Positions 52,657 through 58,288 of a stretch of DNA of 64,000 bases are shown in pieces (within the stretch, counting starts at the first letter, position 1; each line of letters opens with the position of its first letter). A program made the position numbers and the translations under genes. The stretch comes from a phage: the sequence record PX915677.1; one strand, 5' to 3'. The notes below the pieces were generated by a model. It saw only the letters and a program-made list of their open reading frames with translations, did no database searches and had not been told where the DNA came from.

Positions 52657-53313
52657 TTAACTCTCCACAGTTTTCTTCAGAGCTGCCCATGAGATTGGGT
52701 AGAGTTTAGCCATCTCTTCATCCAGAGATTTAGCAAACACTCGAACTTCATATTGAGCGTGAGATGAGAGTCGCTGACGACACAACTCAAACCAGCCATA
52801 CAAAGAACCAGTCCACACCCACTCAGTGATCATCCCCTGAGGAAGAACAAATCGAGCTTGCTCTGGTGCAATAAATTCAATCAACTTGTCATATGCTGCT
52901 AGAGAAGCTTCATATGCATCGTTAATCAGCATTAATGCTTCAGCTCGCTCTCCGTTGATGAGTTGAATCCCTGAACCTGCATGGAGGTCCGAAGGTCTCG
53001 CAAAAATCTCTTTAGGGATGAAGACTTCAACTGCTCCATCTTTATACCGCCGGGACATTTCGTTCCACGAGAATCCAACCTGATGCTTCTGTAGTTGACG
53101 AGCGATTGCAATTGGAGCCTTACAACGAAAGGACACTTGTGGGTGACGGAACGGAGTGCAGTGTTTCTCTCTAGCCAAGAAGTTAATCAGCCTAGTATCA
53201 CGATCATTCAAATCACCCTCTCGTACAACACCAAAAGAAACTCTTGCAGCATTAACAACAGTTTTATCACTGCCCATAGCTTCAATCAATGTTGCTTGCA
53301 ATTGTTCATTCAT
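52657..53313 (-). CDS. thyX: ThyX-like (flavin-dependent thymidylate synthase family) protein with altered signature motif
   Basis: VNAARVSFG, TPFRHPQVSF, KAPIAIARQL, SHAQYEV blocks align with ThyX; signature position reads KHQ-x8-S where ThyX has RHR-x7-S. Confidence 0.65.
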   Translation of the reverse strand: MNEQLQATLIEAMGSDKTVVNAARVSFGVVREGDLNDRDTRLINFLAREKHCTPFRHPQVSFRCKAPIAIARQLQKHQVGFSWNEMSRRYKDGAVEVFIPKEIFARPSDLHAGSGIQLINGERAEALMLINDAYEASLAAYDKLIEFIAPEQARFVLPQGMITEWVWTGSLYGWFELCRQRLSSHAQYEVRVFAKSLDEEMAKLYPISWAALKKTVES

Positions 53314-53785
53314 ACTTCAACTTCTCCTTGTTATAAGCAATCTCTGCTTCCTCTGGAGTATGGAAAGTTCCTAAATGCTTAGTCTTTCCGTTAACTCCGA
53401 TTATAGCTCTGAATTTTGTACCACTAGCCGTCTCTCTGATGTAAACACCCATTGGAAGTTTTCCAGCTTTTCCGGCTCTATTGTATTGTTTTCTGTTATG
53501 ACAGTTTGTAGATGGGTCAACATCTCTTAGGTTTTTAAGAGAGTCATCCAGTTTAATCTGGTTGATGTGATCAATCTCAAACTCAGGCATCTTTCCATAA
53601 GAGAAAAACCAAGCTAATCGACATGCTCTGTAAGATTTCCCTTCATAATAGATGTACCTGTAACCTAATGTTGAGACACACCCAGCAATGTTCCCTGATA
53701 CTCTCCTACCTTTGGTATTCTTCCACCTAAAGATTCCAGTATCAGGGTCATATGCTAAGTCTTCTTTTATCTTATCAGTTAACAC
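53306..53785 (-). CDS. HNH homing endonuclease with AP2-type domain
   Basis: FEIDHINQIKLDDSLKNLRDVDPSTNCHN plus AP2-like C-terminus. Confidence 0.7.
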   Translation of the reverse strand: MLTDKIKEDLAYDPDTGIFRWKNTKGRRVSGNIAGCVSTLGYRYIYYEGKSYRACRLAWFFSYGKMPEFEIDHINQIKLDDSLKNLRDVDPSTNCHNRKQYNRAGKAGKLPMGVYIRETASGTKFRAIIGVNGKTKHLGTFHTPEEAEIAYNKEKLKYE

Positions 53786-54050
53786 CTAAAGCTGTATCCA
53801 AAAATGCTTTCAGGTTTGCTTCAGTCTGCATACCAGAGAGGCTGTAATGTGTTCCACTGTTACGGTCAGGTACAACAAAAGCAGGGATGCTTCGTACACC
53901 ATACTTAACAGCTTGTTCACGACCATCACCTTCAAGGATGTTAATCTCTTCCACTTCTACATCAAACTCCTTAACAACCTTCTCAAAGGTAGGAGCCATT
54001 GCTTTACATGGAGCACACTGATCACTATAAAACTTAATTACTTTAGGCAT
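53775..54050 (-). CDS. Thioredoxin-fold protein (CxxC = CAPC)
   Basis: KFYSDQCAPCKAMAP near N-terminus, about 90 aa. Confidence 0.65.
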   Translation of the reverse strand: MPKVIKFYSDQCAPCKAMAPTFEKVVKEFDVEVEEINILEGDGREQAVKYGVRSIPAFVVPDRNSGTHYSLSGMQTEANLKAFLDTALGVN

Positions 54051-54058
54051 GTAAATCC

Positions 54059-54238
54059 TTATGCAGTCAGGAGGTGAAGCAGGAATGGGATAACAACAGC
54101 TACGATAACCATGATAGTTGATGCTGTTTGAATCTCACCTTTCTTATCAGGAGTTTCTTCAATAAGCTTACCAGAAGCCCAATAAATACCACCACCAATA
54201 AAGATAGCCCAAATACCCCATACGATTGCTGATAACAT
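54059..54238 (-). CDS. Small two-TM membrane protein (59 aa), below ORF-track cutoff
   Basis: AAGGA RBS; MLSAIVWGIWAIFIGGGIYWASGKLIEETPDKKGEIQTASTIMVIVAVVIPFLLHLLTA. Confidence 0.35.
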   Translation of the reverse strand: MLSAIVWGIWAIFIGGGIYWASGKLIEETPDKKGEIQTASTIMVIVAVVIPFLLHLLTA

Positions 54239-54298
54239 ATATCTATATCCTTATAAATAAGTTCGCCCCACCTCGGGTTAGGAGACAGGGCGGAGGTT

Positions 54299-54862
54299 TT
54301 AGTAAGACACGTCACCACTTGAATGGGACATGTTGCTCTTGACGAAGTAGCAATACTTGCCAAGACCTTCATTAATTTCTTGAAGCATACTCTGATCGAC
54401 AGGGTAAGTGGCTAAATCGCCATCAAACTCATCCATCTTCTCAATAATACACATCAAGGTCATGCACATATCAGAGAGCATACCGTCCATGTCTAGATCA
54501 GCATTACCCTCTGAGAACCAAGCGTGGGATAGGTAGTTAGCTGCTGTAGCATCCACTTTAACACAGTGGTATCGCATACGTTCAGCAATACGATCTCCTA
54601 CTTGTCGTGCGTAATCTTCCAGCTCATCAAACATACCATGAACACCCTGAAATCCTGCACCAGAAACGTTCCAGTGGTAGTTCTTAGCTTTGATATGCAA
54701 GAGTTCCATGTTAGCTTGTAAGCAGCTCAGGATGTGTTCTAGGCTGTTTGCACTAATCATGCCTTGCATTGTTTCAAGGCGAGAGATTGAAAGCTCAGAC
54801 CGGTCTAACATACTATAACTGTCACGACCAATCTCAGGTAAATCAAAGACATTCTTATGCAT
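54299..54862 (-). CDS. Dps/ferritin-like protein (start moved to Met with GGAGAA RBS)
   Basis: NYHWNVSGAGFQGVHGMFDE matches Dps ferroxidase-site region (E. coli Dps AHWNMRGANFIAVHEMLDG, from memory). Confidence 0.55.
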   Translation of the reverse strand: MHKNVFDLPEIGRDSYSMLDRSELSISRLETMQGMISANSLEHILSCLQANMELLHIKAKNYHWNVSGAGFQGVHGMFDELEDYARQVGDRIAERMRYHCVKVDATAANYLSHAWFSEGNADLDMDGMLSDMCMTLMCIIEKMDEFDGDLATYPVDQSMLQEINEGLGKYCYFVKSNMSHSSGDVSY

Positions 54863-55184
54863 TTGGGTTTTCTCCATCAAGTTCAACTGAGTTAGCAACA
54901 TTACGTGCAATATTATCCATTACCTGCTGGGTAATTACGATGCAGTTCTGTGGGTCTACTGACTTAGAACGCCCCATTTCAGGGTCATACACCTTAACTC
55001 GCTTAGCAGTTGAACCTGTGACCTGAAGAACCTTCAACAGATATCCCTGATTACCAATAGACCAAGCAACAACATCACGATTCTTGATAAAGCGACCAAG
55101 CATATCACGATGATAAAACTGTTGCATCACCTTGGATTTTGTAATCTCTTCAGTGGGCGGGGCCACTTTACTCAAATCTAACAT
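54855..55184 (-). CDS. Hypothetical protein (109 aa)
   Basis: ORF track; AAATGTATA variant motif about 45 nt upstream. Confidence 0.5.
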   Translation of the reverse strand: MLDLSKVAPPTEEITKSKVMQQFYHRDMLGRFIKNRDVVAWSIGNQGYLLKVLQVTGSTAKRVKVYDPEMGRSKSVDPQNCIVITQQVMDNIARNVANSVELDGENPNA

Positions 55185-55256
55185 AACTCTCTCCTGTAAA
55201 ATACAAATTCTTATTGTACTCTATATACATTTGAGAGTTATCATATCTACTACCAA

Positions 55257-55466
55257 TCAGTAGTAAATTACTTTAGACATAAAAGAACCAGTGTTAGGGT
55301 CTTCATACCAGCGATGTATGTCAGCGCTTTTTACTATTGTGCCCAGAGTCTTCAACTGTTTCTTAGCAATACGAGCCTCTTTGCGAGTGTCAAACAATTT
55401 GATGTTATCTTTTCTCATGTGTTGCTCAAGATTCCAAACAACATGAATAGCCCACATCTTTTTCAT
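55257..55466 (-). CDS. Small protein, member 3 of tandem triplicated family
   Basis: Shared TRxxARxxKK core and C-terminal SKV(I/Y)Y. Confidence 0.55.
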   Translation of the reverse strand: MKKMWAIHVVWNLEQHMRKDNIKLFDTRKEARIAKKQLKTLGTIVKSADIHRWYEDPNTGSFMSKVIYY

Positions 55467-55675
55467 TAGTAATGTACCTTTCCGCTAATATAAACACGAC
55501 CAGAGGAATACTCTCTGGCCTTATGAATACTGATGCTCTTGATCATATCCATATTAAACATAGATTTTTTAAAATCTCGAGCTTGTTGGCGAGTGGGTAG
55601 TGCAGTCATAGTCATGCCACCTGATGCCCACTTAATCTTTGCTAACCAAAATTGTCTCATGGTGATTGGTCTCAT
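55466..55675 (-). CDS. Small protein, member 2 of tandem triplicated family
   Basis: Shared core, C-terminal GKVHY. Confidence 0.55.
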   Translation of the reverse strand: MRPITMRQFWLAKIKWASGGMTMTALPTRQQARDFKKSMFNMDMIKSISIHKAREYSSGRVYISGKVHY

Positions 55676-55872
55676 TAATAATAAACCTTACTGTTAACAC
55701 AAAAAGCACCTTCACTATTCACGATAGCTTTTCCTAGTGTAACCTTATTAAGTCTAAAAGTAGATTTGTATTGATTTTTGACCCTACGTGCGTGCTCTCG
55801 AGTCTTAACAAAATCTACAGCTACTAACTCTCCAGTCGTGTTGTCATGTACACGAACAATCCACTTTTTCAT
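55675..55872 (-). CDS. Small protein, member 1 of tandem triplicated family
   Basis: Shared core, C-terminal SKVYY; translationally coupled to dcd. Confidence 0.55.
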   Translation of the reverse strand: MKKWIVRVHDNTTGELVAVDFVKTREHARRVKNQYKSTFRLNKVTLGKAIVNSEGAFCVNSKVYY

Positions 55873-56406
55873 TTACACACCTTTAGATGCAACCACACCT
55901 TCAGAGTTATTATAACGACCCTTCACTGCGTAGGAATGTTCCCCTGCATGAGAGTGCTCAAACATAACCATTTGACCAACACGCATACCAGCACGAACTC
56001 GTAAGCTGTGGTGCTTGGTTACGTTATGGAATTCAAATGTCAGCTTACTGCTATTAAATCCTGCATCTGCCCAACCGGCGTGAAGGTGGTTCAAACCACA
56101 ACGAGCCATAGACGAACGCAAAACAAACAGGCTTGAGATGTTATCTGGAAGGTTAAACTCCTCCATAGAGTGAGCCAAGAAGAACTGACCCGGAGTGATA
56201 ACCAAACCCTCTTCAGGAATCTTTACTTCCTTCCACTGAAGATTCTCTTTCGCATCAATATCAACGATGCCATCAGCCTGTTCTTCAACAAGGATAGTAT
56301 CACCAATACGGATATCCACACTAGCAGCGTTAACATATTTATGCTCCGCATCCAGATAACCATTGTCAATTACATCGTGCAGTTCAATACTTCCTAGTAA
56401 ACCCAT
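55873..56406 (-). CDS. dcd: dCTP deaminase family protein
   Basis: NAASVDIRIG and GWADAGFNSSKLTFEFHN match Dcd-family motifs. Confidence 0.75.
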   Translation of the reverse strand: MGLLGSIELHDVIDNGYLDAEHKYVNAASVDIRIGDTILVEEQADGIVDIDAKENLQWKEVKIPEEGLVITPGQFFLAHSMEEFNLPDNISSLFVLRSSMARCGLNHLHAGWADAGFNSSKLTFEFHNVTKHHSLRVRAGMRVGQMVMFEHSHAGEHSYAVKGRYNNSEGVVASKGV

Positions 56407-56415
56407 TCTTATTCC

Positions 56416-57729
56416 TTAGTTATTTTCGTCTATTTCAAAAGAGATTCCACGACCCGCTTCATCGGCAAACCGAACTGTACGGGTTTGAGGCTGCAACACT
56501 TCAGGGTTGTTGGCAACAAATTGATCAGCGAGACTATCTCCCAAATCCTGTTCCATATCTTCATCAGTCCACACAGCCCTAACAGGTGCGTTGATATCAC
56601 CAACAGCGAAACCCTGACCAGAGAACTGACGTGCGCTAACAGTTAAGCCGTTTGGTCGACCACGAGAGGGTCTAGCCATCCATCGCTCCATAGAATCACT
56701 TGTAATACCAAGAGCTTCTTCAAAAGATGTTCTACGAGTAGGGCTTTCTCTTCGTGACTCTTGTGCTCGACGCATTGCAGGGGCTACAAACACCCCTTCA
56801 ATTGCATTGTGTCGGTTAGGTTCCTCTTCTCGACCAAGCAGATCACCACCCGTGTTAGTCGTTAAATTTGTCAACCCCTCAGACCAATACGCATGAATCT
56901 GACCAGAACCGTGAAGACTAGACATAATCTGAATCTCTTCATAAGGGATTCCAAAGAATCGACTCATGTCTCGGTTAACACAATATAGAGCACTTGTTGT
57001 ATCTTCAATAAGAGAAACCTGACCTAATCCATTGACTAGATGACTAACTGGCTGAGGTGTGGGAAGATATCGAGTTTGGGCCATGTATTGATGCGCAACT
57101 GCTGGAGAGGAAAATCTCAACACTTGTGAGTTAGGCCACTTCTTGTGAACATACCTGATTTCACGACTAGAAACAACCACTGGACAAGGGGAAGTCATAG
57201 CCAAATATCCGTGAGAAGTCATGAATAAGTTGTCAAGAGTCATCGCACCACGGCACATCATAGGAAAATTATCCAATACCTCTTCAATAGAAGTAGGATA
57301 ATTAAACATGAATTGGATACGAACCCCATTCCACTGAAACTCAATAATATCAGTGAATGTTAATTGAGAACCCCCAGCATAGGATTCGTTTGTAGCTTCA
57401 GCAAGAAGTGATGCATATTCAATATCTTGTGACTCTAGCCATTCCTTCACATTACTTTCAATCTCCCGTCCAAGCTCTTGCCAACGATCAGTTGGGATGA
57501 AAGTGTTTTGAGTTCTTGGTGTTTGTCCTCTGACAATAAAGATATCAATGTCATGTGGAGCTATGTTATTAAGGACAGCATCACGAACAGCCCCACCAGT
57601 AATGATGGGACAGATACCATCTGGAATCAAGTTGTTGTTAATCAACTGTTCAATGAAGTGACGACCAACAGTGATATCAGGTTGTTGAGCAACCTTATCT
57701 TCAATTTGGTTAATCGGGATAACAATCAT
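56416..57729 (-). CDS. Pol-beta superfamily nucleotidyltransferase with CCA-enzyme/poly(A)-polymerase-like head motif
   Basis: ITGGAVRDAVLNNIAPHDIDIF (GGxVRD ... DxD); remainder lacks recognisable CCA-enzyme neck/body motifs; Arg-rich C-terminal region; start moved to ATG 57729. Confidence 0.6.
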   Translation of the reverse strand: MIVIPINQIEDKVAQQPDITVGRHFIEQLINNNLIPDGICPIITGGAVRDAVLNNIAPHDIDIFIVRGQTPRTQNTFIPTDRWQELGREIESNVKEWLESQDIEYASLLAEATNESYAGGSQLTFTDIIEFQWNGVRIQFMFNYPTSIEEVLDNFPMMCRGAMTLDNLFMTSHGYLAMTSPCPVVVSSREIRYVHKKWPNSQVLRFSSPAVAHQYMAQTRYLPTPQPVSHLVNGLGQVSLIEDTTSALYCVNRDMSRFFGIPYEEIQIMSSLHGSGQIHAYWSEGLTNLTTNTGGDLLGREEEPNRHNAIEGVFVAPAMRRAQESRRESPTRRTSFEEALGITSDSMERWMARPSRGRPNGLTVSARQFSGQGFAVGDINAPVRAVWTDEDMEQDLGDSLADQFVANNPEVLQPQTRTVRFADEAGRGISFEIDENN

Positions 57730-57730
57730 T

Positions 57731-58288
57731 TTACATTTTCCAATATAATGAAGGTGGGTCGTAAGGGTCAAATCCCGTGAGTTCACACAAGAAAAGATAA
57801 ACCTTAACAGTCAAGTTAACGTCCTGTTCACAATAAGTAAACATATCTTCAGTGAAAGCATCCCATGCTTCCTCTTGCTCACCGTAGTCACCTTTAAGTT
57901 CCTCTAAGAACTCACCCCATTGCTTCAAGCCGTGACCTCTTGGGCCACGTCTAGGGTCGCCTTTCGGATACTCAGGACTGTCGCCAATACGGTCAGGTTT
58001 AAGATATCGACTAAGACATAAAGTGTCAAAGACGTTAAAATTATATTTAATCAAAGAGGGATACATCTTCTTCAGAGCAGGTAAGTCGAAGTCAATAATA
58101 TTATGACCCACTAGTACATCTGCTTCTGTCAGTTTACGAATCCCGTCTTCAATTTGGTGAGGCCGATAGCCCCACCTTTCACCAGTTTCAACATCGAAGA
58201 TATAAATACACCATACTTTAGTTATGTCATCGTACAGTGCATTACTCTCGATATCGAATGCAAACACTTTCTTCTTTTTCTTTACCAC
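57731..58288 (-). CDS. Stand-alone DEDD (DnaQ-like) 3-prime to 5-prime exonuclease
   Basis: Exo I FAFDIESN, Exo [12 protein letters not shown], Exo III YCEQDV. Confidence 0.8.

Follow-up and report, generated by a model that had tools for sequence, protein, structure and literature searches.

Ancient tandem paralogues of a small basic protein family behind the dCTP deaminase gene of a Kuravirus

Are the three small genes that follow the dCTP deaminase gene (dcd) of a phage copies of one gene and, if so, what might such a family be for? The question is raised by positions 55257 to 55872 of the 64,000-nucleotide phage sequence analysed here (record PX915677.1, hereafter the window), where three open reading frames (ORFs) of 65-69 amino acids (aa) lie head to tail on the minus strand. 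A preliminary description of the sequence had taken them for a tandem triplication of a small-protein gene co-transcribed with dcd, and had suggested that they might have diversified against host factors. Over 1.7 kb around the array, the sequence matches phiEco32 and many sequenced relatives at 97-98% identity, identifying the source as a Kuravirus, and the three ORFs equal the phiEco32 genes phi32_71, phi32_70 and phi32_69. Their products (gp71, gp70 and gp69) are 91%, 100% and 100% identical, respectively, to those of the window, and in genes, position and coupling there is no difference of substance between the two phages. The three phiEco32 proteins are deposited as hypothetical proteins (ABY52870-ABY52872), and the searchable literature yielded neither a mention of the genes nor a discussion of their paralogy or function; the gp69 and gp70 types do appear among the genes listed as core to the phiEco32 subgroup (PMC8948821 Table S2). 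Our analysis establishes that the array consists of genuine, ancient paralogues of one gene family, and leads us to propose, tentatively, that the members of this family bind a polyanionic target.

The similarity between the copies is low and significant. Mutual identity is 23-25%, and pairwise BLASTP comparisons give E = 6e-5, 3e-4 and 0.09. All three copies match PHROG 4939, a phage protein family without an assigned function, at E of about 1e-28 and with 64-69 residues covering its 67-position profile. The PHROG model probably includes these very proteins among its members, and separate hidden Markov models (HMMs) were therefore constructed, each on the orthologues of a single copy. With each of these single-copy models, the next-best matches among the 473 ORFs of the window were the other two copies (E = 3e-7 to 7e-3), and hhalign comparison of the orthologue profiles aligned them over their full length (P = 6e-6, 1e-10 and 2e-8). 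BLASTP, leave-one-subfamily-out HMMs and profile alignment thus agree that the tandem array of similar genes noticed at first is real, as are the TRxxARxxK core and the C-terminal ...V(Y/H/I)Y that had been singled out in all three copies. No repeat between the copies could be detected at the DNA level, and the duplication must hence be old.

The physical arrangement of the genes is equally regular. The stop codon of dcd (55873-55875) abuts the first ATG of the array, and both internal junctions consist of the pentamer TAATG, in which stop and start codons overlap by one base; the preliminary description had already observed that stop and start codons are coupled. A sequence resembling a Shine-Dalgarno (SD) site, AAGG(T), lies 5-10 nucleotides before each start of the array, within the last codons of the preceding gene. 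Copy 2 has an alternative start at an internal ATG (55660), which yields a 64-aa product with the M(K/R)xxW N-terminus that is conserved in the family, and the five-residue extension encoded upstream varies between lineages; the upstream ATG (55675) possesses the better SD site. The true start of copy 2 may therefore be the internal one. The GC content of the array (37-38%) is below that of its flanks (44-46%).

Beyond the three copies of the window, the family comprises single-domain proteins of 64-85 aa with a remarkably uniform character. All 48 copies gathered are strongly basic: their isoelectric points (pI) lie at 9.6-10.8, where the window's ORFs have a median of 6.1, and their net charges at +5 to +12. 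Of the 48, 47 end in tyrosine. Over 31 divergent members, four residues are invariant: W4 in the first strand, and T24, R25 and R29, which form a T-R-x-x-x-R signature at the start of the helix; A28, K32 and Y65 are nearly so. The resulting motif set (the tryptophan in beta1, T-R-x-x-A-R-x-x-K at the helix start and the C-terminal tyrosine) is carried by all three window copies. AlphaFold2 models of two of them, the gp71 and gp69 types, share a beta-beta-alpha-beta-beta topology. The conserved arginines and lysine occupy positions i, i+4 and i+7 and fall on one stripe of the helix, which is probably exposed to solvent.

Within groups of orthologues, variation clusters in the beta1-beta2 loop, the helix-beta3 linker and the beta3-beta4 turn. 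The gp69 type (proteins P0077, P0080, P0082, P0084, P0087, P0088 and P0091) combines a conserved N-terminal two thirds with alternative C-terminal thirds, of which at least four exist and one (…SYISGDVHY) resembles the C-terminus of gp70. This pattern suggests that C-terminal thirds have been exchanged between alleles or paralogues.

The family is restricted to a single lineage of phages. When 1.84 billion cluster representatives were searched in full with an HMMER profile, 20 family representatives emerged at E <= 1e-3. Indexed searches of 5.8 billion proteins, run once more with the 31-member divergent profile after a first round, retrieved only family members, none of them with a Pfam domain or an informative name. 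Every member whose surroundings were inspected comes from a genome or contig of the phiEco32-like type, in which the genes run in a constant order: helicase-primase, polymerase exonuclease, nucleotidyltransferase, dcd, the array, a 109-aa gene of gp68 type, a Dps-like gene, thioredoxin and thyX. In the window and in every inspected locus the family resides in the dcd-to-thyX segment of this replication operon, and the array itself always follows dcd directly. In three outgroup loci of the Grimontviridae (Salmonella phage SE131, Proteus phage P59 and Aeromonas phage BUCT695, representing Moazamivirus, Privateervirus and Libingvirus) dcd, the gp68-type gene and Dps are present and the family was not found; the small ORFs that P59 and BUCT695 carry between dcd and the gp68-type gene are unrelated to it. 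Two divergent metagenomic members had no tblastn match in isolated phages.

Copy number varies considerably within these limits. Two copies follow dcd in SU7, ECBP2, EK010, EcoN5 and several metagenomic contigs, three in the window, phiEco32, Paul, EP335 and one metagenomic contig, and five in one metagenomic contig of 87 kb. The interval between thioredoxin and thyX constitutes a second site with 0, 1 or 2 additional copies, and in metagenomic contig L013 a third site, upstream of thioredoxin, holds a single divergent copy; between the Dps-like gene and thyX the operon thus has up to three additional copies. The gp70 and gp69 types are present in all E. coli isolates examined; in the loci covered, Kuravirus and Nieuwekanaalvirus alone possess the gp71 type. 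The term triplication consequently holds as far as the paralogy goes, but understates what is a lineage-wide multigene family with two, three or five copies in its array and further copies elsewhere, nor are its homologues single-copy structural proteins of known function.

Other genes share these sites. In Paul, EcoN5 and ECBP2 the array is interrupted or preceded by small ORFs which, when tested for membership, proved not to belong to the family: Paul has an acidic 68-aa ORF (L002 1892-2098), EcoN5 two ORFs (L003 1825-2250) and ECBP2 a membrane-like ORF of 63 aa (L006 2098-2289). The corresponding position of Proteus phage P59 holds a small acidic 68-aa ORF (L018 4762-4968) whose product, judged by eye, may resemble a thioredoxin or glutaredoxin. 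Given that unrelated small ORFs also occupy it, the interval from dcd to the gp68-type gene behaves as an accessory-gene hot spot. Between thioredoxin and thyX the window carries an ORF for a 159-aa HNH_3 endonuclease (53306-53785, minus strand) where phiEco32 has no gene, and where Paul, EcoN5, ECBP2 and EK010 have one or two extra family members. In EcoN5 (L003 777-1824) and in L013 (2829-3876), a dcd allele only 58% identical to that of the window precedes a gene for an HNH endonuclease, and no gp71-type copy is present, an arrangement suggesting that the dcd-plus-array cassette was replaced in association with a homing endonuclease.

Evolutionary rates set the array apart from its neighbours. 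Between Kuravirus and Suseptimavirus, nonsynonymous divergence (dN) reaches 0.45-0.49 for gp70 and gp69, compared with 0.04-0.07 for dcd, about 0.06 for gp68 and 0.12-0.13 for Dps, so that the array exceeds neighbouring genes 4-10-fold. At the protein level, the small array proteins retain 42-50% identity between genera, whereas dcd retains 92-95%. The ratio of nonsynonymous to synonymous divergence (omega) spans 0.03-0.66 in the array and 0.00-0.12 in dcd, gp68 and Dps, and the values for gp69 climb to 0.5-0.66 in close pairs. The family hence evolves fast, yet under purifying selection. Synonymous divergence between the window and Paul amounts to 0.31-0.66 in the array, above the 0.23 of dcd and the 0.06 of gp68, an elevation that fits the exchange of cassettes by recombination. 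The gp68-type protein is far more constrained than the adjacent array: its identity is 100% within Kuravirus and 92% to the Suseptimavirus counterpart, with an omega of 0.00-0.05, and it also occurs in Grimontviridae relatives. A further fast-evolving gene of the operon is the gp73-type nucleotidyltransferase (56416-57786, minus strand), which has only a weak match to the PolyA_pol head domain (E = 0.002); in loci L004-L008, L011, L014 and L015 its identity between genera is 30-42%, against 86-95% for the flanking dcd, and its omega 0.2-0.6.

The coordinates of the array and of the elements around it are compiled in Table 1. Co-transcription with dcd, as originally proposed, is supported by the abutting and overlapping junctions, by the SD-like sites and by a scan that found no promoter-like site between dcd and the last copy, and on this layout it appears probable. 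The same region holds a weak terminator-like hairpin within copy 2 (55520-55498), from a scan that returned 5 sites in total against 4.2 expected by chance, and no Rfam family was found within 53000-58000. The last copy is followed by a gap of 72 bp containing the sequence aAATGTATA. The consensus of promoters used by the gp36 holoenzyme is tAATGTAtA, and aAATGTATA is the P68 promoter before gene 68 of phiEco32 (PMC8948821 text, Table S3); nucleotide-metabolism genes have been placed in the middle class (PMC8948821). With P68 directly downstream, the array would lie at the 3' end of a transcription unit situated ahead of the gp36-dependent promoter that is most upstream on this strand.

Table 1. 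Position and supporting evidence of the array genes and neighbouring elements in the window (pLDDT, predicted local distance difference test; AF2, AlphaFold2; MFE, minimum free energy)
Feature	Coordinates	Strand	Evidence and remarks
dCTP deaminase (dcd; phiEco32 gp72 orthologue)	55873..56406	-	directly upstream of array; Pfam DCD 3.7e-34; phrog_1663 6e-60; phiEco32 annotation
Copy 1, gp71 type, 65 aa	55675..55872	-	phrog_4939 1.2e-27; AF2 pLDDT 80.3; pI 10.1, net charge +8
Copy 2, gp70 type, 69 aa	55466..55675	-	phrog_4939 6e-28; pI 10.8, net charge +10
Copy 3, gp69 type, 69 aa	55257..55466	-	phrog_4939 1e-28; AF2 pLDDT 85.8; fastest-evolving copy
Predicted hairpin at array end	55245..55268	-	RNAalifold consensus, 10 loci
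aAATGTATA, gp36-holoenzyme (middle) promoter P68	55224..55232	-	motif scan; PMC8948821; invariant in 10 loci
Conserved stem-loop	55183..55241	-	inverted repeat; MFE -19.5 kcal/mol, z = -3.5
gp68-type gene, 109 aa, first after array	54855..55184	-	phrog_10984 1.9e-64

Conservation in the intergenic region that follows the array exceeds that of the array, and two predicted RNA structures are located there. The 5' arm of the hairpin at the array end is formed by the last gp69 codons (TAC TAC T of TAC TAC TGA) and its 3' arm by GGTAGTAG, which is invariant in ten aligned loci. Because no T-run follows, the hairpin does not qualify as a classical terminator; it could serve in processing or in stabilising the 3' end. 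In the larger stem-loop, an outer stem pairs positions 55233-55241, just upstream of P68, with 55183-55191, which hold the SD site and AUG of gene 68, and P68 itself lies inside the loop. The same architecture is predicted for all ten loci compared (the window plus L002-L007, L011, L013 and L015), with compensatory changes that preserve the stem in EP335 and in two metagenomic clades, mgL011 and mgL015. According to this model, read-through transcripts would keep the ribosome-binding site of gene 68 closed, while transcripts initiated at P68, devoid of the 5' arm, would leave it open.

Database searches provide no direct clue to the function of the array proteins. In Pfam, two of the copies had no match and the third returned only sub-threshold noise (Ribosomal_L13e, E = 0.1; LEA_3a, E = 0.22), and an NCBIfam scan of the copies produced no match. 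The sole match of a PDB profile search was marginal (E = 0.04), to a 35-residue stretch of yeast Rsa1, outside the TR..AR motif. A fold search of BFVD gave one significant match, to another family member, and the next-best matches were also family members. The AbrB/MazE swapped-hairpin DNA-binding domain, which has the same beta-beta-alpha-beta-beta order, was considered, and no fold match to AbrB, MazE or SpoVT was obtained. A docking tail of the type found in single-stranded DNA-binding proteins and T7 gp2.5 was likewise discarded: a terminal tyrosine does occur, but the tails (S-K-V-Y-Y, G-K-V-H-Y) are neutral to basic rather than acidic. A possible likeness is to Pfam DUF2188, which would be similar in size, in beta-beta-alpha-beta-beta order and in the first-strand tryptophan, and whose helix would begin with a T-(K/R)-x-E-A motif; none of the three copies matched it in the Pfam scan at E <= 1. 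We know of no function for DUF2188, a group of small bacterial and phage proteins with a W...TK.EA motif.

Comparison with characterised phage systems is more informative in what it discards. Ocr, ArdA, Ugi and p56 are strongly acidic anti-restriction proteins that act as DNA mimics. The array proteins resemble them as small phage proteins probably made before the late genes, and such a role would explain the restriction resistance of this group of phages, but the family is uniformly basic and cannot act by DNA mimicry of the Ocr, ArdA or Ugi type. T4 Dmd antitoxin and the anti-CRISPR AcrIIC3, both small alpha+beta phage inhibitors, are placed among the closest known systems. More generally, tandem arrays of small accessory paralogues are a general phenomenon in the pre-late regions of lytic phages. 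The present array shares with them its small coupled ORFs, variable copy number, faster evolution than core neighbours and restriction to a single lineage, and departs from them in residing inside a replication and nucleotide-metabolism operon, at a fixed place after dcd. With its genes already deposited and grouped in PHROG 4939, it is best regarded as an uncharacterised example of a known phenomenon.

The reading that we favour, at a probability of roughly one in three, is that this ancient orphan multigene family of the phiEco32 lineage (PHROG 4939) is composed of non-enzymatic polyanion binders with paralogue-specific loops. Judging from the gene layout, the copies would be translated in coupling with dcd and would sit at the 3' end of a pre-late replication and nucleotide-metabolism transcript that ends just before P68. 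The proteins may then bind a polyanionic target stoichiometrically and without enzymatic activity, nucleic acid being the simplest candidate; the single helix might provide the binding surface through its R-x-x-x-R-x-x-K stripe, which is common to all paralogues, and the beta1-beta2 loop, the helix-beta3 linker and the beta3-beta4 turn might set the specificity of each paralogue. Rapid evolution, changes in copy number and lineage restriction suggest an accessory, host-facing role and disfavour one in core replication, and it seems plausible that the proteins are directed at the host. Several considerations weigh against this proposal. The basic surface may equally bind an acidic protein, and the invariant residues could be structural, the threonine as a helix cap and the tryptophan and tyrosine in the core. 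The core status of gp69 and gp70, together with an omega well below 1, also fits a conserved housekeeping role in the phage. Pfam, NCBIfam and PDB sequence searches contributed no usable match, and co-transcription and timing derive from the layout and from published phiEco32 promoter positions.

Most of the evolutionary evidence would also be expected if the paralogues were inhibitors that bind acidic host proteins (defence, nucleoid or replication factors), each variant with its own target, which duplicated and recombined in an arms race. The 4-10-fold excess of dN over neighbouring genes and the gp69 omega of up to 0.66, the variable copy number and additional operon sites, the alternative C-terminal thirds of the gp69 type with their gp70-like variant, the synonymous divergence from Paul above that of flanking dcd and gp68, as cassette exchange would produce, the low GC content and the restriction to one phage lineage all agree with such a scenario. 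So does the reported high resistance of Gordonclarkvirinae to restriction-modification (RM) and other tested defences, for which no inhibitor is known (PMC11990801). Nonetheless, no omega exceeds 1, the gp69 and gp70 types are conserved core genes, and the array is part of the replication module instead of lying among the diverse early host-takeover genes of phiEco32. Moreover, the R/R/K surface is common to all paralogues and thus suggests one common ligand feature, against many protein targets. We regard host-factor inhibition as the main rival, a little less probable than the reading that we favour. It corresponds to the diversification against host factors that was initially envisaged: high dN, variation in copy number and loops, and lineage restriction are compatible with it, but the observed range of omega remains below 1.

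The constant position of the array invites a different explanation, in which the copies serve as accessory or regulatory subunits of the phage dTTP-synthesis and replication machinery, tethering or regulating dCTP deaminase, ThyX, thioredoxin or the polymerase. The array always comes next after dcd in a translationally coupled layout, its commonest secondary site is immediately upstream of thyX, and the operon encodes replication and nucleotide-metabolism proteins throughout. A subunit role for dcd or ThyX is unlikely, however, because the Grimontviridae outgroups retain dcd, ThyX, the gp68-type gene and Dps without the family, the slot being absent or filled with unrelated ORFs, and because the small proteins have diverged between genera while dcd has stayed conserved. 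Furthermore, dcd and ThyX are single-copy while the number of array copies changes, and the unrelated ORFs in Paul, EcoN5 and ECBP2 point to an accessory-gene slot. Association of the paralogues with each other, in a hetero-oligomer whose stoichiometry is ensured by translational coupling, would be compatible with any of these functions. The genes are coupled and overlapping, strand beta1 is hydrophobic on both faces, and the conserved C-terminal tail has low confidence in the gp71 monomer model, as would a segment that becomes ordered only in a complex; yet the gp69 monomer model has a confident C-terminus, and copy numbers of two, three or five, with loss of the gp71 type in whole genera, are hard to reconcile with a fixed stoichiometry, which makes this arrangement improbable too. 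The absence of any annotation is all that speaks for chance reading frames or functionless, decaying duplicates. Three genera and a number of metagenomic clades have retained orthologues, with omega below 1, the motifs do not vary among 31 divergent members, the predicted fold is a confident one, and start sites are conserved and coupled; purifying selection and the conserved motifs effectively refute spurious ORFs, and we give this reading practically no credence.

Kuraviruses are common coliphages with a broad host range that are in development for therapy and are unusually resistant to defence systems (PMC11990801). Against this background the array family, being lineage-specific, fast-evolving and variable in copy number, is a reasonable shortlist candidate for host-interaction functions, and the BASEL isolates Bas86-93, which infect engineered E. 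coli K-12, make it directly testable. Should the array proteins prove to be accessory factors of an ordinary kind that bind nucleic acids, the gain would mainly be a better annotation of an orphan PHROG. A bolder proposition, which we regard as a long shot, is that they are the missing counter-defence factors of Gordonclarkvirinae, coating or masking replicating phage DNA or RNA, or blocking a host system that senses nucleic acids, with the paralogues covering different systems. If true, this would explain resistance to RM and to most of the defence systems tested, without a known inhibitor or DNA modification (PMC11990801), through a mechanism unrelated to that of the acidic DNA mimics.
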